The notes under the pieces are model-generated. The model had not been told where the DNA came from and ran no database searches. It saw only the letters and a program-made list of their open reading frames with translations. Shown one piece after another: positions 1,267 through 21,169 of a stretch of DNA of 47,773 bases. The DNA lies in the IMG/VR virus record IMGVR_UViG_2667527975_000009, positions 1 to 47,773 of that record; one strand, written 5' to 3'. Made by a program: the position numbers and the translations under genes. Source of the stretch: a virus (Duplodnaviria; Heunggongvirae; Uroviricota; Caudoviricetes). The number at the start of each line of letters is the position of its first letter. Position 1 is the stretch's first letter.

Positions 1267-3441
1267 CTATCTAATCCTGAACATTACAATTGGAGCAGAG
1301 CCAGAAGATAAAGGGCCTGACCAATGGTATCTAATTCTGAAAGAAGACTCACTTGGAGTTCCGATAATTTCTATTGGACTTAAAGTTGCACCTTCTGCAG
1401 AACCAGCAGGTTGTCTAAACCCCAACACAGCAATCTGGTTTGGTGTTGGGGCATACAGAAAATTATGCTCAATATCAACCTCGTTAGATTCGCTACCTGT
1501 TGGGTTTGGCATATTCCACTCAATATAATCGTCAGTTGATTTCCCATTTATTGAGTTTCCAACTGTTGCCATAATCGTCCACGTACACGTCCTGTTAAGG
1601 GCTGCCATTCTATCACCTAAAAACCTATTATAACCATTTGCGCCTGAAGTGATTAATCTTATATTCTCTGATGCACATGTGCCAATGCTGTTAAATCCAG
1701 TGCAATCAGAAGAAAGCCCCTTCGCAGTTATATCTACGCTGTTCGCAAAACAAATTGTTGTTGAATTTACTGCATCGCGAATAAGAGCAGAACCCGAAAA
1801 CAAATTATCACACGAACCTCTTATATTATTACCACCGCCGGATAAGTAACATAAATTTCCTTTTATCCTCTTGGATGTAAAAGTAACATTGTTATTGTCA
1901 CCAGTAACAGAAAGAAGCGAGGCTTTAATAGGGGCATTGTCACTCTGTAACTGACCAATTTGGTTTATTGTAACTACATTGTTGTTGCCTGATATAGCTA
2001 TCTGATACCCATCATCATCAATTGAAGGTGAATATCTTTGTGCTTTTATATTGATGTTAAGTGTCCAGATTGTACCGTTATCCAGAAGCATGTCGCGGAG
2101 AGGAGAAATTGAATCGCCAGTGTAGTTATCTGGCATTCTTCCGCACGCCCTGGCTTCTGCGATGGCAACAACACCATGTGCCCCGTTGGTAAACCAGTAA
2201 CCACCTAAACTATTATCAACACACACATGCCTCGCATTGAATCGGTTAACACCCAGCGTCTTAAATCCATAGCCATAATACGCAGCATATACATGGATGT
2301 AATTTATATCGACATGTCCTGTATAAGGAGACTGATTATCAAGAACAATTCCATGACATGGTTCTCCGGGATAAAGAAGGCTTTGTTGGCTTGTTGCTGT
2401 TAATCTTGCGCTGTAAGGAGGAAGTCCACACAGGCCAAAAACAATATAATCCATGTTAATATCACCTGGCCCCCTGAACACAACCCCCTCTCTCCCTGAA
2501 ATTCTTCCCGTTATCCTCACTTCAGAGGCGTGTTCCTGATTATCATGAAATGATCCATACCCCTCTGAATAGAGAGCATGTTCTGCAACATTATTAATCT
2601 CAACGTCAATGTGGTACATGCTGCCGAATATTTTAATGGCAGTTCCATAGTCATTGTTAACAGTGTCGCAAGTTCTCCATGAGTTTGTATCTCTTTGCAA
2701 GTCAAGATAATTACCATCAATGGTCATATCTTTTATGCTAAATCCATATGGCGCATCAGACAGATTTTCCACAACGCCAAAGCCATGTGTTTTAAATACA
2801 TCTGTATTACTACCTTTTTTAACATACAGAAATGTTGCTCTCTTTCCAGAGCCTTTATGATGAACGCCTGTATAAAGAATGATAGGAGAATCTATTAAAT
2901 AAACACCTGGAGGGTAAAATATTTCCCCGCCACCATTATTAAAAGCAGCTAATGCTGCGGCATTAATGGCATCAGAATCTGATGTCAATCCATCTGCTTT
3001 AGCTCCATAGTATTGAGGTGTTTTCCTGATTGCATCGTAAACCGTTGAAGCGCCGAAACCGATATATTTACTACCATCTGTACCGCCAATAAGTAATTTA
3101 AACTGATCCGGGTCATACTTCAGCACATTCGGAAAATAGAACTGCTGTGTACCATACGCATCATAAACAGCCATAGAATGGCCTTGCACGGTTACGAATT
3201 TGGCAATCTGTCCGTTATATACCGGATATCCAGCAGCGTTAATGATTATTGGTTGCGAAACAGGAACGTGAGAACCGTCTTCATTCTCCACATAAACCTG
3301 AATCTGGTTTTCAGGATTTACTGGGTCAGTGTCAATTTTACCGATATAAATTTTGCCATTAGCTACGGCTTTAAAAGAGCGGGCCATAGTGAAGAGTTGC
3401 GAAGGCATGCTCACTACAACATTGGCTGTAATGTCTGTCAT
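1267..3441 (-). CDS. Tailspike (P22 gp9 / HK620-type head-binding domain with a divergent receptor-binding domain)
   Basis: 724 aa. The first ~115 aa ([46 protein letters not shown]...) match the conserved head-binding domain of P22-like tailspikes; the remainder is unrelated to the P22 or HK620 sequences I recall. The gene is visibly more AT-rich than its neighbours. Confidence 0.9.
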
Positions 3442-3499
3442 TTAATTTGCTCCAGATACAAGGAATGGCCGCAGTGATGCATTATTAACCAAAAAATAC

Positions 3500-3512
3500 G
3501 ACCACCGTGGTC
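3500..3512. promoter_or_regulatory. Mnt-operator-like palindrome
   Basis: GACCAC-C-GTGGTC, a 13-bp palindrome between the divergent mnt and tailspike starts; it resembles the P22 Omnt core as I recall it. Confidence 0.45.
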
Positions 3513-3576
3513 TTATTGAGGATGCAACCAGCAGATAATAAGATGCCGATCCACTCACAAGAGCGAGGCATCAAGA

Positions 3577-3828
3577 ATGGGAAGAGATGACCCGCAATTT
3601 AATCTGCGGCTACCTTACGAATTAAAGGAAAAACTAAAACAGCGAGCCAAATCCAATGGCCGCTCTCTTAATTCAGAATTAGTTCAGATAGTGACTGATG
3701 CTGTATCAAGGCCATCCAAAATTTCAGGCTATCGAGACGATGCGGAACGCATCGCTGATGAGCAATCAGAGCTTGTTAAGAAGATGGTGTTTGATACGCT
3801 GAAGGATTTGTACAAAAAACCCACCTGA
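3577..3828 (+). CDS. mnt: Mnt repressor (ribbon-helix-helix, Arc/MetJ family)
   Basis: 83 aa, MGRDDPQFNLRLPYELKEKLKQRAKSNGRSLNSELVQIV...DAERIADEQSELVKKMVFDTLKDLYKK; near-colinear with P22 Mnt. Confidence 0.85.
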   Translation: MGRDDPQFNLRLPYELKEKLKQRAKSNGRSLNSELVQIVTDAVSRPSKISGYRDDAERIADEQSELVKKMVFDTLKDLYKKPT

Positions 3829-3844
3829 AGGTGGGTCCTATTTA

Positions 3845-4264
3845 TTAGTCTTGCTTTGTTGATGGTATAAGTGATGCATTTGCCTCTTTTGGCTTCAAGG
3901 TATACATCCCACCATTAAATGGATCTACAGCAAGCCAACCAATTAACCCACCAAACACAAGGTTTCCACCAATATACCAACCATTAGCATTGGCTTTGAT
4001 TGGCAAGGTTACTGGCTCGTACCCATCCTTTTCCATAGTGATCTGATAGCTCTTTTTGCCAAAATAACTACCATCTGACTTGGCAAGAGTTACTCCTTGC
4101 GGGGTCTTACCTTGCGCAACAATCACGCCTGATTCGTCTTTTACCTTAAAGCTCGCACCGGAAGGATTGCTGTTCACTTGCACAAGCTGTGTTTCGTCAC
4201 CAACAATAGTTGCGCACCCAGATAACAATATAGCGCCAGCAACGACGCCGATAATCCTCTTCAT
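3845..4264 (-). CDS. Lipoprotein (moron; possible superinfection exclusion)
   Basis: 139 aa with an N-terminal signal peptide and lipobox (AILLSGC); sits between mnt and the ejection-protein genes. Confidence 0.6.
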   Translation of the reverse strand: MKRIIGVVAGAILLSGCATIVGDETQLVQVNSNPSGASFKVKDESGVIVAQGKTPQGVTLAKSDGSYFGKKSYQITMEKDGYEPVTLPIKANANGWYIGGNLVFGGLIGWLAVDPFNGGMYTLKPKEANASLIPSTKQD

Positions 4265-4398
4265 ATTACTTTCCGTTTTGTTAGAATCAGAAAGATCTTA
4301 ATAATAAAAAGTATTTTCGTGAAGATATTGTCGATTGAGTTAATAACTCATTTACACCCAACAGTGCCATGATGGCAAAGATAAGGAGAGTTAATCAT

Positions 4399-4884
4399 AT
4401 GAAAAAATCACTGTTAATTATCCCGCTTCTGCTGGCAGGGTGTGCAAAGGTTAGCGACTATCAGGCAAGTTGCGAACAACGCTATCCAAAGCTTAGCGAT
4501 ATGGCTAATTGCCTTGATGCTAGCGTGAAGAACGACTCACGCATGGCATCAGCACCAACACCTAAGTTATATGTCCTTGCTGCGAAGATGCTCGGGCAGG
4601 GTGTCGATGATGGCAAGATAAGTGACGCGCAGGCAAGACTTGAGCTTCAGAATCTTTATGTTCAATTACAAAGCCAAGAACAAGCCCAACAAATAGCGCA
4701 AAGCCAAGCATTCCAGCAGGCTTTATTGAATTATCAGGCTGTAAACACAATGCAAGCGATCGAGCAAAAAGCGAGACAGCCTGTTATAACTCAACCCTAT
4801 CCAACACGAGTTGACACTTACACAAACTGCAATTCAGGGTTTGGTAATACAGTCACATGCAACAGTAGCAGTAACATCAGATAA
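4399..4884 (+). CDS. Lipoprotein with Q-rich region (moron)
   Basis: Start taken at MKKSLLIIPLLLAGC (lipobox), with AAGGAG about 9 nt upstream; Q-rich central segment; opposite strand to the structural genes. Confidence 0.6.
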   Translation: MKKSLLIIPLLLAGCAKVSDYQASCEQRYPKLSDMANCLDASVKNDSRMASAPTPKLYVLAAKMLGQGVDDGKISDAQARLELQNLYVQLQSQEQAQQIAQSQAFQQALLNYQAVNTMQAIEQKARQPVITQPYPTRVDTYTNCNSGFGNTVTCNSSSNIR

Positions 4885-4974
4885 CAATCAGCAAAGGTAT
4901 CGCCTATGCAGAGGGATACGATAAACCTCGCGTTCTACATATTTGGTTTTTGCACGTTCCTGGTGTTTGCGAAG

Positions 4975-6972
4975 CTATTCTGACAGCGCATCAGACTTAG
5001 CACCCTGAGTCAGGGCGTTAATGACCTTTTGTGCCTGCTGCATGGCTTTCTCAAACGCTGTTGATCCGCGTGGGGTGTTTGCCATTCGGAGCATTGCATT
5101 CCTGAATGGCTCGCTCTCATAGGCGCGAGTAAGAAGTCCGTAGCTTACTGCTGCACCAGTTGTCGCCGGGTTCATTGCCGTCCCATACCCAATAATGAAC
5201 GGGATGGTTTGCTGCCCTGTGGGTGTTGTTACTGCCGCTTTTGCAGCCTGCTGCGTGGATTGCAGGTAGTTTTTCAATCCTTTCAGATAAGCGGCTTCCT
5301 GACCTTTAAATGTGATGCCAGTCTGGTTTTGCAGGATGTTAAGCTGTCGAAGGAACTGGTCAGGGGATCCGCCAGATTTCTCCATCGCCTTTCCAATGAT
5401 GCCATTGCGCATTTGCGCCCTGCCAACACGACCAACTGAGTTATACAGCGTCTTAATTTCCGATTTGTTCTTGCTGAATAGCATGTTGTTGACAACTTCC
5501 GGCGTCAGGTCGCCTTTCATGAGAACATTCTTCAGCCTGGTATTCTTTAGTTTCGCCGCTTCGTCAGCGTAGACGGCATTGGCCTGCTGATATTTACGGA
5601 GAGTATCGTTGCCAAGATTCTGACCAATGGCACCATTGATATCGTCAGTCATTGCCTTGTAAACGCGCTGAATAGCAGCATCGGAACGGTTTGGTAACAC
5701 TGGTCGCTCACCCTTCACGTCCATTCTGAACTGGCTGCGCAGGTCGCTTAATTGCTTCAAATCCAGATTTACCGGACCATCAGGGCCAGCATTGCGAACA
5801 AGCTCATCACGATATGACTGAAGTTTTGAAATTGTCTCGTTATCAGCTACCTTACCAAGCTTCTGCAGATTAGATATCTCAGTATCAATCTGCTGAATTG
5901 CTCGCGCAGGCTGGATATTGACTCCCGCCATTGCATTCTGAACCTGCTCAAGACGGTTCCCTGCGGCACGACGAATTCCTGATGTTTTCGCTTTAAGGCT
6001 GTCAATAACAACCGCTGGATCATACTCACCGAATTTATCGGCAAATCTCTGCACCAACTGGCTTCTCGCTTCCTGTTGCGTTGCTCTCATTCCGCTTGTG
6101 CCAGCCAGAGGGATATTTTCTGCTGTAGTCTGCGCCATTTTTCCGACGCGGGAAGTGGGTTGTAACAGGTCTGTGGTGTGCAGAGGAACTCCTTCACGCT
6201 CTGCAAATCTGATAGCCTGCTGCGCTTCTGGCGCAATAGCACCACTAACGCCACGATAAGCAGCACCTAATCCACGTCCAGCAGCGTTAATAGCGCCGCC
6301 TGCCAGAACGCCAACACCTAAATCGGTGGCGAGGGCTTCCGCATCATCTTTCGCACTATTTGCAGCAAGTGACCCGACTGCGTTTTCAGCGAGAAGGCGA
6401 GTTGCACCCTGAGCGATTCTACCAGCTAGTGTTGGTGCCTGTGCCGCCGCTCTCTCAACGCCAGCAGGAGTGAGGTAAGGCAATGCTTCAGCAAATACCC
6501 TTCCCTCTGTCGTTTGTGGAGTCAGCGCGCCTTGCTGAAGGCCAAAGTCCTGCTCTAATCCCTGCGTTGTTACTCGTGGCGCTGGTTGATATGTACCATC
6601 GCCAATGCCGAGTTTACCGCCAGCCCAAGCCGCCGCGCTTGTTACAGCATCGGCAACTGATGCGGGTATGTTTGCCACGTTCACGCCAGCCTGCACCAGT
6701 CCGCGACCAGTCTCTTTTACTGCTTCGCCAAGATCAGACATAAATCCACTTTGCTGTGGTTGTTGCTGTGCTACTGGTTGCTGTGTCTCCACTTGCTGCG
6801 CAGATGGCAATGGATAGGCAGCATAGAAAGCTTGCTTGGCCTGCTCTGCATTTTCTCCGGCTTGCGGGGCAACGACTTCATTGAAGTATTGCTCCTGAGC
6901 CTGCGCTTTTTGTTCTGGTGCTAACGCCTGATACTGTGGAGAGGCGATAACATCTTTCCATGCTTTAGCCAT
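4975..6972 (-). CDS. Ejection (internal virion) protein, P22 gp16-like
   Basis: 665 aa, last gene in the gp7-gp20-gp16 order; Ala/Gly/Gln-rich composition. Confidence 0.75.
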   Translation of the reverse strand: MAKAWKDVIASPQYQALAPEQKAQAQEQYFNEVVAPQAGENAEQAKQAFYAAYPLPSAQQVETQQPVAQQQPQQSGFMSDLGEAVKETGRGLVQAGVNVANIPASVADAVTSAAAWAGGKLGIGDGTYQPAPRVTTQGLEQDFGLQQGALTPQTTEGRVFAEALPYLTPAGVERAAAQAPTLAGRIAQGATRLLAENAVGSLAANSAKDDAEALATDLGVGVLAGGAINAAGRGLGAAYRGVSGAIAPEAQQAIRFAEREGVPLHTTDLLQPTSRVGKMAQTTAENIPLAGTSGMRATQQEARSQLVQRFADKFGEYDPAVVIDSLKAKTSGIRRAAGNRLEQVQNAMAGVNIQPARAIQQIDTEISNLQKLGKVADNETISKLQSYRDELVRNAGPDGPVNLDLKQLSDLRSQFRMDVKGERPVLPNRSDAAIQRVYKAMTDDINGAIGQNLGNDTLRKYQQANAVYADEAAKLKNTRLKNVLMKGDLTPEVVNNMLFSKNKSEIKTLYNSVGRVGRAQMRNGIIGKAMEKSGGSPDQFLRQLNILQNQTGITFKGQEAAYLKGLKNYLQSTQQAAKAAVTTPTGQQTIPFIIGYGTAMNPATTGAAVSYGLLTRAYESEPFRNAMLRMANTPRGSTAFEKAMQQAQKVINALTQGAKSDALSE

Positions 6973-8267
6973 TAATCACCCCATAGTGAAGAAAAGTTAC
7001 TGCCAGTAGTAGATTGTTGCCCTGGCATATTCTGCACCGGCTCCTGATAATCAAACTGTTTTTTAACAGTGCTCAACTTGCTTTCAAGCTGATTTCTAAT
7101 CTTTCCGATAGAGTCACGAAAAGCCTTTTCACTCATTTTGGGACTTAGGGCACCAACCGCATCGGATAATTTTTTACCCTCAGCATCTGAAAGAGCGCCC
7201 ATACCCTTCAGGGACTGCACCATAGGAAGGAATGTTTGAGCTTTAAAGGTGTCGAGTCTTGCTTCAAAGTTAGCCGCATCAGATCCAGGAACTGTCGGAA
7301 ACGCTGAGCGAATGCCTACTGCTTTTGAAAGGCCGGGGCTTTGCTCTATCTCGTTGAGAGAATCAAGCGCAGTGCTGAACGTATCAACTGCACCCTGAGC
7401 GGCGGCCTGCCTGTCAGCGCGGGCTATGTCAGCCTTTTGCCTAACATCTGCCTGTTTCTGTTTTAGCTCTTCAAGCTTTAACTGATTGCTTTCTCTGGCT
7501 ATCTGTCTATCCAGAGCCTTCTCCTGTAATTCTGCTCTTTGTATTTCGCGGGAAAGAGCGGCATTCTGTGCGCTGATGTTCTGTCCACGTATCTGGATGT
7601 CCTGACCACGCGCTGTTAGTGCTTCTCCAGCCTGATTGCTGCGGATTGTCTCTGCCAGTCTGCCTCGGTCAATCTCACGACCAGCCATCTTGTCCTGAAC
7701 ATTGAAGTAGTCAATCGGACCGAGAGCAGCCATCCCAAGGTGATCAACAAACTCACCAAATCCTGAAGGGTTCTGCTGATACATCTGAGCAACGCTGTTA
7801 GGGTCAACACCGACGCGAGTCAGTTCCTTGGCGTTGTTTTGCAGCCATGATTGCATTGCTTCTGGAGACGATGACGCAAGGCGGGCGCCAGCCGCTAAGG
7901 TTCCGATAGAATTGCGCTGGTCTTCATCAATGAATCCCATGCCTTTACGAACGGATTCAATCTGGTCTGGATATTGAGTAGCCAACTGACGCAAAGCACC
8001 GCGATCACCAGACGCATAAGCATTAGCGTATGCCTGCTGAAATTCTTTCTGCCGCTGAGCCTGCTTTTCCTGCTGAAACACCCCCGCAATACCTGAAAGG
8101 CCTTGCAAAGCAGTCAGCCCAACATTGTTAGCGCCTGAACGCTCAATATCATTGTTCTGCCTAATAAGTTGAAGCGTATTGCCGATGTCATTTACGCTCG
8201 GAGCGTTTGAGTTGACGCCGCCGATACCAGCCAACAATCCGCCATTTGATCCTTGCCAAGTAGCCAT
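6972..8267 (-). CDS. Ejection protein, P22 gp20-like
   Basis: 431 aa, synteny between the gp7-like and gp16-like genes; coiled-coil-rich. Confidence 0.75.
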   Translation of the reverse strand: MATWQGSNGGLLAGIGGVNSNAPSVNDIGNTLQLIRQNNDIERSGANNVGLTALQGLSGIAGVFQQEKQAQRQKEFQQAYANAYASGDRGALRQLATQYPDQIESVRKGMGFIDEDQRNSIGTLAAGARLASSSPEAMQSWLQNNAKELTRVGVDPNSVAQMYQQNPSGFGEFVDHLGMAALGPIDYFNVQDKMAGREIDRGRLAETIRSNQAGEALTARGQDIQIRGQNISAQNAALSREIQRAELQEKALDRQIARESNQLKLEELKQKQADVRQKADIARADRQAAAQGAVDTFSTALDSLNEIEQSPGLSKAVGIRSAFPTVPGSDAANFEARLDTFKAQTFLPMVQSLKGMGALSDAEGKKLSDAVGALSPKMSEKAFRDSIGKIRNQLESKLSTVKKQFDYQEPVQNMPGQQSTTGSNFSSLWGD

Positions 8268-20731: not shown

Positions 20732-21169
20732 TTATTTCAGGCACTGAGTCCTGATGTACTCCTGCAGGTAGTTAACCTGCGCGGTTATCTTGTCGATTCC
20801 ACTTCGGAGACGGTAATAATTGAGTTCAGCATCTGCTGTAAGTCTTGGGCTTTCTCCATCGCCCATGCTGCTGGCTCCGGTCGTTGACTTTGCACAGGTG
20901 GCGGCGACTTGCAGGCGCTTACGCCCAGCAGAAACATCAGCACGAAGGCTTTCGATAGTAGCGTTAGCATCAGCAAGCTCCTTTGTGTATCTGGCGTCGA
21001 GTTCTGCTACATCACGTTGACGCTTCTGCATATCAGCGATGATGGATGTGGCTTTGTCGCGCTGGTCTTTATAGGCGATGGCGTTATCACGGTAATGATT
21101 AACCGCCCATGAAAGGCAGACGATGACGCAGATAACCAGAGCGGAGATAATCGCGGTTATTCTGCTCAT
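20732..21169 (-). CDS. Rz: i-spanin Rz
   Basis: 145 aa, [31 protein letters not shown]...; near-identical to lambda Rz at the N-terminus. Confidence 0.9.
20785..20976 (-). CDS. Rz1: o-spanin Rz1 (embedded in Rz, alternative frame)
   Basis: Lipobox LLGVSAC followed by a Pro-rich segment, nested inside Rz. Confidence 0.75.

Follow-up and report, generated by a model that had tools for sequence, protein, structure and literature searches.

Two unrelated lipoprotein genes in the ant moron region of a P22-like Escherichia coli prophage, candidates for separately acquired, lysogen-expressed morons

The window analysed here is the whole of a 47,773-nucleotide stretch of viral DNA (positions 1 to 47,773 of IMG/VR record IMGVR_UViG_2667527975_000009), and it is a P22-like (Lederbergvirus) Escherichia coli prophage. 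Between mnt and the gene for the gp16-type ejection protein it carries two open reading frames (ORFs), ORF-A (3845..4264, - strand; WP_000821222.1) and ORF-B (4399..4884, + strand), whose products of 139 and 161 amino acids (aa) are predicted outer-membrane lipoproteins. Both genes are already in databases as hypothetical proteins at a known hot spot. We tentatively read them, with somewhat less than an even chance of being right, as two unrelated lipoprotein genes that were acquired separately and are expressed in the lysogen from the "ant moron" hot spot of a P22-like prophage. By analogy, superinfection exclusion is plausible for ORF-B; for ORF-A a role in envelope fitness appears at least as likely as superinfection exclusion.

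In the 1.6 kb surrounding the two genes, identity is 100% with E. coli CAVp367 and 97% with phage Gally, an active prophage of the adherent-invasive E. coli (AIEC) strain LF82 (PMC9928086). P22-like phages have, from gene 16 to the tailspike gene, a variable interval that has been described as the "ant moron" (PMC2629481). As an earlier note on this DNA stated, the slot between mnt and gp16 is where P22 has sieA, and the two flanking genes are those that it named. The left edge of the cassette region is marked by mnt, an Arc/Mnt-family maintenance repressor gene (3577..3828, +; Pfam Arc 1e-21, Repressor_Mnt 1e-18), which is annotated as Mnt in Gally and epsilon34. The right edge is the gene for the gp16-type ejection (DNA transfer) protein (4975..6972, -; phrog_770, 4e-238), annotated as an injection protein in Gally and convergent with ORF-B. 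The same note described ORF-A and ORF-B as convergent. Their starts, at 4264 and 4399, face apart over an AT-rich intergenic region of 134 bp (4265..4398), so that the pair is divergent (head-to-head), and the convergent pairs are instead ORF-A/mnt and ORF-B/gp16. It also placed the start of the second gene at 4369. The likelier start is 4399, giving 161 aa, because AAGGAG lies 8 nt upstream of it, the match to the PHROG profile starts at residue 11 of the longer version, and the Prokaryotic Genome Annotation Pipeline (PGAP) annotates the gene as 4399-4884. Translation probably does not start at 4369, an in-frame ATG further upstream. In the Gally record (OV696608; 3981-4496) the ORF-B counterpart, GALLYPH_13, is annotated from the upstream ATG with a length of 516 nt, and its true start is probably 30 nt further downstream.

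Both ORFs are real genes, as judged from the lipobox pattern, the conservation of each family, and the ratio of nonsynonymous to synonymous substitution rates (dN/dS). The lipobox signal peptides pointed out in the earlier note satisfy a PROSITE PS51257-type rule, which asks for K/R in the n-region, an uncharged h-region, the pattern [LVI][ASTVI][GAS]C, and Cys at residue 15-35. The N-terminus of the 139-aa ORF-A product is MKRIIGVVAGAILLSGC, and its signal is composed of MKR, IIGVVAGAIL, and L-S-G-C17 (lipobox LLSG-C17). The ORF ending at 4884 (+) carries MKKSLLIIPLLLAGC, and the signal of ORF-B is composed of MKK, SLLIIPLL, and L-A-G-C15 (lipobox LLAG-C15). When the rule is applied to the 1251 possible starts of the 47.8-kb window, the real genes that satisfy it are ORF-A, ORF-B, and an Rz1-like spanin only. 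The last of these is an Rz1-type o-spanin lipoprotein ORF (window 20785-20970, -) nested in an Rz-like lysis gene (20732-21169, -). Little or no variation is seen at the lipobox Cys, or at the Gly in front of it, among 68 aligned homologues of ORF-A and 58 of ORF-B. Both genes are under strong purifying selection, with dN/dS of 0.03-0.06 against the epsilon34, VSe13, O104:H4, and Gally copies. ORF-A matches PHROG 6823 at 6e-86 over residues 1-139, and ORF-B matches PHROG 6067 at 4e-110 over profile positions 1-161; both are PHROGs of unknown function. No paper on either protein turned up in literature searches keyed to its accession or locus tag. In E. coli the residue at position +2 decides lipoprotein sorting (the Lol avoidance rule), and Ala at this position leads to the outer membrane. 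Both ORF-A and ORF-B have Ala at +2, from which they are predicted to be sorted to the inner leaflet of the outer membrane.

That these genes are morons, as was proposed, is borne out by their patchy presence in syntenic prophages, their lower GC content, a terminator belonging to ORF-A, and transcription in the Gally lysogen. Among 80 related prophage loci in IMG/VR that carry ORF-B, ORF-A is present in 15; in 32 of the 80, mnt is followed by ORF-B after 94-95 bp, and the remaining loci have other inserts. In complete E. coli genomes (n=5426), ORF-A is found in 129, ORF-B in 186, and the pair in 24. ORF-A is partnered with an hkcB-like gene instead of ORF-B in epsilon34 and in an O111:H8 prophage, and ORF-B is found without ORF-A in VSe13, Proteus phage Brookers, and an O104:H4 outbreak strain. 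Since each gene occurs without the other in otherwise syntenic prophages, they are regarded as two independent cassettes. Strains with one or both genes include AIEC LF82 and enterohaemorrhagic/enteroaggregative E. coli (EHEC/EAEC) O104:H4, O26, and O111. The GC content is 41-46% (0.41-0.46) over positions 3600-4999, compared with 48-55% (0.48-0.555) in gp16 and gp20; it is also low in the tailspike gene.

ORF-A is flanked by a terminator and by a putative promoter. A bidirectional hairpin (3819..3836, found by terminator scan and folding) lies between the stops of mnt and ORF-A. On the - strand, which serves ORF-A, it is followed by U6 and has a fold z-score of -3.0; on the mnt side (+ strand) the U-tract is weaker (z = -2.15). 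A Rho-independent terminator is annotated at the equivalent place in epsilon34. A putative sigma-70 promoter of ORF-A (4295..4323, -) has -35 TTCACG (4323..4318), a 17-nt spacer, and -10 TAAGAT (4300..4295). It was deduced by eye from an alignment of four intergenic regions and is below the threshold of the promoter scanner. The epsilon34/O111 version reads TTCACA-17-TAGGAT, so that the promoter-like architecture is kept though the other neighbour differs. Promoter-like sites on the + strand (4260-4287 and 4278-4305) are no commoner than chance in a consensus scan. Both genes must have their promoters in the 134-bp intergenic region. Only from the ORF-B ribosome-binding site onwards is there similarity to prophages lacking ORF-A. 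When the 90-bp spacer between ORF-B and gp16 (window 4885-4974) was folded, no terminator-like structure was found, with z ~0 on both strands as for shuffled sequence; transcription of ORF-B may therefore continue, in antisense, into gene 16.

Evidence for expression in the lysogen is found in published RNA-seq data of LF82, in which both genes are transcribed, contrary to the possibility of silence in the lysogen raised by the earlier note. In Gally, GALLYPH_14 is identical in protein sequence to ORF-A and GALLYPH_13 is 99% identical to ORF-B (PMC9928086). The values are given as log2(fpkm+5), where fpkm is fragments per kilobase per million (PMC9928086 S1 Table). GALLYPH_14 is at 4.8-6.2 in stationary lysogeny broth (LB), 9.8-10.5 in Dulbecco's modified Eagle medium (DMEM), and 9.4-11.0 in macrophages; GALLYPH_13 is at 6.0-6.3, 7.9-8.2, and 8.5-10.3, respectively. 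Meanwhile gp16 stays at background (3.6-4.1 in LB, DMEM, and macrophages), and the c2 repressor is at 8.9-12 in all conditions. In each of the five conditions both lipoprotein genes are thus clearly higher than gp16, which is silent (PMC9928086), and in DMEM only c2 outranks GALLYPH_13 and GALLYPH_14 among Gally genes (PMC9928086 S1 Table). It is reported that the five rightmost Gally genes are up 6- to 40-fold in macrophages (PMC9928086). The mnt gene (~40-fold) and the tailspike gene are co-induced there (PMC9928086).

ORF-B has the more restricted distribution of the two. Its AlphaFold2 (AF2) model has a predicted local distance difference test score (pLDDT) of 67.6 overall and 83-90 for residues 20-100. 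It consists of a small helical N-domain with conserved Cys25/Cys38, a Gln-rich spacer (~84-125) of variable length for which model confidence is low, and a C-terminal hairpin that has the conserved pair Cys144/Cys154 and the motif TNCxxxGNxVxCNS. Neither a fold match nor a sequence relative of known function was found for it. An NCBIfam match of ORF-B to GspK is spurious, falling on the Gln-rich helix. A profile search of 1.84 billion representatives gives ~260 relatives with no Pfam annotation. Most are lipoproteins of ~128 aa that have the same four Cys and a short linker, so that the Gln-rich part is seen to be a lineage-specific spacer. The genomic contexts retrieved for remote relatives are one viral contig and seven short metagenome contigs. 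On the viral contig (IMG/VR 3300004202_000003, 5427-6348), a 126-aa relative (phrog_6067, 7e-17) is directly downstream of a CI-like repressor gene. This contig is from an unrelated temperate phage, and a position after the repressor is typical of prophage-expressed genes.

All full-length ORF-B homologues whose context was read are in P22-like prophages, in the gap from tailspike/mnt to gp16 and convergent with gp16. The genera with ORF-B in this slot are Escherichia, Salmonella, Proteus, Morganella, Yersinia, and Serratia, and in Yersinia and Morganella ORF-B is the sole gene of the gap. Its position and orientation, after gene 16, convergent with it and downstream of mnt, are those of sieA in P22. 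SieA type A is absent from 80/80 ORF-B loci and from the window (types B and C were not screened), and there is no overlap between the 41 phage records bearing sieA and the five ORF-B phages. ORF-B is thus a strict positional alternative to SieA. The two are not homologous by BLASTP, which gives no alignment at E <= 100. That ORF-B has long been confined to a single lineage and slot suggests that its function is bound up with the biology of P22-like phages. By analogy with SieA, ORF-B may act as a superinfection-exclusion factor facing the periplasm, a proposal whose chance is close to even. In the proposed mechanism, ORF-B would be anchored in the outer membrane and project its disulfide-bonded C-terminal hairpin on the long Gln-rich spacer, where the hairpin could interfere with the needle or the E-protein channel of incoming P22-like phages.

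ORF-A belongs to a different and much wider family. Its AF2 model has a PEGA/transthyretin-like beta-sandwich (about residues 25-93), followed by the Gly-rich helix NGWYIGGNLVFGGLIGWLAV (94-113) and then DPFNGGMY. The segment NGWYIGGNLVFGGLIGWLAVDPFNGGMY is nearly invariant among homologues. Residues G95, G99, G106, and G109 lie on a single helix face as a glycine zipper, suggesting helix-helix packing at a membrane. PEGA (PF08308) scores 17.6 bits against ORF-A and 17.9 against a distant homologue, where the Pfam gathering score is 20.8, and the modelled beta-sandwich is compatible with it. All NCBIfam matches are below threshold: the LEPBI_I2678 family (22.9 bits, cut-off 240), NGK_0946, and Cor. 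No informative fold match was found for ORF-A.

Homologues of ORF-A with 51-80% identity are found in Gamma-, Beta-, Delta-, and Zetaproteobacteria and in one metagenome-assembled genome of Bacteroidota. Among 80 genome loci, the chromosomal homologues have no neighbour common to all lineages. Within genera, they are syntenic, beside e.g. MurJ, EAL-domain proteins, or an outer-membrane protein, implying that the family is a resident chromosomal gene in many lineages. EAL-domain c-di-GMP phosphodiesterase genes adjoin the homologues in 11/80 loci (e.g., Lonsdalea and Chromohalobacter); these neighbours vary (CSS-EAL, PAS-GGDEF-EAL), and their presence may be a functional link or chance, EAL genes being common. 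In Enterobacterales the family is also frequent prophage cargo, in several slots of lambda-like tail modules. Paralogues 68-71% identical to ORF-A exist in E. coli HK97-like prophages between the tail chaperone T and the tape-measure gene, and the 68%-identical one is very common in E. coli. The presence of this family in the exclusion slots of two unrelated phage types is suggestive. Some HK97-like prophages (e.g., ED1a CU928162.2; 7001-7414, 11261-12424) also have a porin (Porin_1/Porin_4) between the minor tail genes M and L, so that with the ORF-A paralogue the tail operon carries two envelope morons.

ORF-A may be a captured copy of a Proteobacteria-wide lipoprotein, which would oligomerise via the glycine-zipper helix at the outer membrane and alter the properties of the envelope. 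An envelope-fitness role, aiding the lysogen under host-like stress, can be put forward for it tentatively, a little below an even chance. A block of phage DNA delivery, as its positional analogues HK97 gp15 and P22 SieA would suggest, is possible for ORF-A and rather doubtful. The wide chromosomal conservation of the family suggests that its partner is a conserved envelope component and not a phage receptor, and a family that is mostly chromosomal argues against a purely phage-directed role.

Several points weigh against the interpretation of the two genes as lysogen-expressed morons with an exclusion function. The case for exclusion is built on position and analogy; neither protein resembles SieA, Cor, Llp, or the PADLOC models by sequence, and no informative fold match was obtained. 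The ant moron hosts non-exclusion genes as well (ant, arc, and hkcB). The hydrophobic helix of ORF-A could, instead, keep this protein in the inner membrane. The expression data are from a related prophage, Gally, in another strain, and samples B1 and B6 are taken as DMEM on the basis of the table caption. Gally was classed as moron-free by its authors from LB data (PMC9928086). The LB levels of the two genes are 3.3x and 4.5x the prophage median, under the 5x cut-off of the authors (PMC9928086), and the statement that Gally has no morons is therefore explained by an LB-only cut-off that both genes narrowly missed. Furthermore, the gut CRISPR interference (CRISPRi) screen of LF82 does not single out these genes.

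The same data bear on an alternative in which both are host-fitness or virulence-type conversion genes like lambda Bor/Lom and have no anti-phage role. Both transcripts jump from LB to DMEM and inside macrophages to near the level of the c2 repressor, the carriers include the AIEC LF82, O104:H4, O26, and O111 strains, and the ORF-A family is chromosomal and syntenic within many genera without nearby phage genes, implying a cellular envelope function. Deletion of the whole of Gally, however, left the survival of LF82 in macrophages unchanged (PMC9928086), and the gut CRISPRi screen flags neither gene. Restriction to one phage lineage and slot, as seen for ORF-B, is unusual for a generic fitness gene, and because mnt and the tailspike gene are co-induced, the induction may be regional rather than specific to these genes. 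On balance this alternative is a serious competitor, if on the unlikely side.

The divergent arrangement brings in another explanation, that the two genes are one unit, a two-component envelope system with a shared divergent promoter region. They are head-to-head over 134 bp, co-induced under the same LF82 conditions, and both predicted outer-membrane lipoproteins. Their distribution largely refutes this, and the hypothesis was rejected on co-occurrence: the pair is rare (15/80 ORF-B loci; 24/5426 genomes, compared with 129 and 186 for the single genes), ORF-A is partnered by an unrelated gene in epsilon34 and O111 and is alone in siphovirus tail modules and chromosomes, and ORF-B is often directly after mnt. 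A single two-gene system is highly improbable. Nor do expression and orientation favour a service in the lytic cycle, whether in lysis/egress or in control of read-through into the tailspike gene. Such a role would fit the location of the ant moron within the late operon, where that of P22 has been suggested to influence transcription of the tailspike gene (PMC2629481), the co-orientation of the siphovirus ORF-A paralogues with tail genes, and the fact that o-spanins are lipoproteins active in lysis. But the late operon, with gp16, gp20, and the tailspike gene, runs on the - strand, so that ORF-B lies antisense to it, and ORF-A, although on the late strand, has a promoter-like element and terminator of its own. 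Both are transcribed while gp16 and all virion genes are at background, the window already has a full Rz/Rz1 spanin pair at another place, and one or both genes are missing from many P22-like phages. A lytic role is accordingly very unlikely.

A stronger version of the exclusion proposal can also be considered. ORF-B, as a disulfide-bonded lipoprotein anchored in the outer membrane, would found a new exclusion class specific to P22-like phages and replacing the inner-membrane SieA at the same locus, and ORF-A would be a generic DNA-entry barrier that has been repeatedly recruited. ORF-B would then block the ejection-protein conduit from the periplasmic side, and unrelated phages would have recruited ORF-A into the P22 ant moron and the HK97 gene-15 site. 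This joint proposal is unlikely to hold as a whole. If ORF-B does exclude P22-like phages from the periplasmic side, the sieA locus would have a second type of occupant that works by a different mechanism, and ORF-B could serve as a probe of how the gp7/gp20/gp16 conduit spans the periplasm. ORF-A represents an uncharacterised lipoprotein that is highly conserved in Proteobacteria, with at least 50% identity between classes. Several prophage types carry it, and its function would therefore be informative for both envelope biology and lysogenic conversion. A practical correction is that Gally, reported to be moron-free, has both genes among its top transcripts in DMEM and macrophages. Accessory lipoprotein genes are expected at the ant-moron hot spot, and current understanding is not contradicted. 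The new points are the positional alternation of ORF-B and SieA, the presence of ORF-A in the exclusion slots of different phages, and expression in the lysogen with strong induction by condition.

The product of the tailspike gene (1267-3441, -) combines a head-binding domain of P22 type with a receptor domain that is pectate-lyase-like. The PHROG that fits it best bears the label colanic-acid-degrading tailspike, and the protein differs from the 799-aa tailspike of Gally, implying that the same moron region travels with different receptor specificities. The immI region is cut down to mnt (3577-3828), with no arc/ant between mnt and the tailspike gene (window 3442-3576); arc/ant are retained at immI in P22, epsilon34, and the O111 and O104:H4 prophages, unlike in the window. 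To the right of gp16 the gene order continues with gp20 (6972-8267, -). The window matches CAVp367 at 99.96% over 1-25428 only, its early region is mosaic relative to that strain, and there is no match beyond ~37.5 kb. The window is thus from a different genome with the same late region.

Among known systems, the closest are sequenced orthologues. Epsilon34 gp15 and Gally GALLYPH_14 are orthologues of ORF-A (98% and 100% identical, respectively; PHROG 6823), and Gally GALLYPH_13 is an orthologue of ORF-B (99% protein identity; PHROG 6067), so the window genes are another copy of already-sequenced, uncharacterised genes. The PEGA domain (PF08308) and glycine-zipper outer-membrane lipoproteins such as SlyB are also counted among the closest known systems. 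PADLOC-DB models match neither protein at E <= 1, and PDB sequence searches, run both from single sequences and from profiles, yielded no meaningful match. Cor of phi80/N15/HK022 and Llp of T5 are phage-encoded outer-membrane lipoproteins that guard the cell from infection. The cor gene adjoins tail genes, and ORF-A paralogues are likewise beside tail genes. The mature Cor and Llp proteins differ from ORF-A and ORF-B in size and predicted fold, and to our knowledge neither ORF has a link to FhuA. A match of ORF-A to Cor was rejected, as it covers the signal peptide only (residues 1-20 or 1-30; phrog_1119, E 0.003; NCBIfam NF047972, 11.7 bits against a cut-off of 31).

Lambda Bor/Iss is a small prophage outer-membrane lipoprotein that is expressed in the lysogen and benefits the host (PMC3594210); the Pfam scan gave no match to Bor (PF06291) for either gene. 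HK97 gene 15, the original "moron", codes for a superinfection-exclusion protein that has its origin in the YebO family of the host (PMC3594210). ORF-A paralogues fill the gene-15 slot between T and the tape measure. As for gp15 (YebO family), the homologues of ORF-A are mostly from bacteria outside prophages, which suggests in both cases the capture of a host envelope gene. The proteins themselves differ, gp15 being a small inner-membrane protein and ORF-A a 139-aa lipoprotein with a beta-sandwich, and we know of no sequence relationship between the two (no direct comparison was made). P22 SieA, finally, is an envelope protein of ~160 aa that is expressed from the prophage and confined to P22-like prophages, in several enterobacterial genera (PMC10883804). 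Its topology is polytopic in the inner membrane, and three of its segments are strongly hydrophobic, whereas ORF-B has a cleavable lipoprotein signal only, and no transmembrane or further hydrophobic segment. Like ORF-B, it occupies the slot right after gene 16, convergent with gene 16 and on the strand of mnt, and SieA (type A) and ORF-B are mutually exclusive in the data examined.

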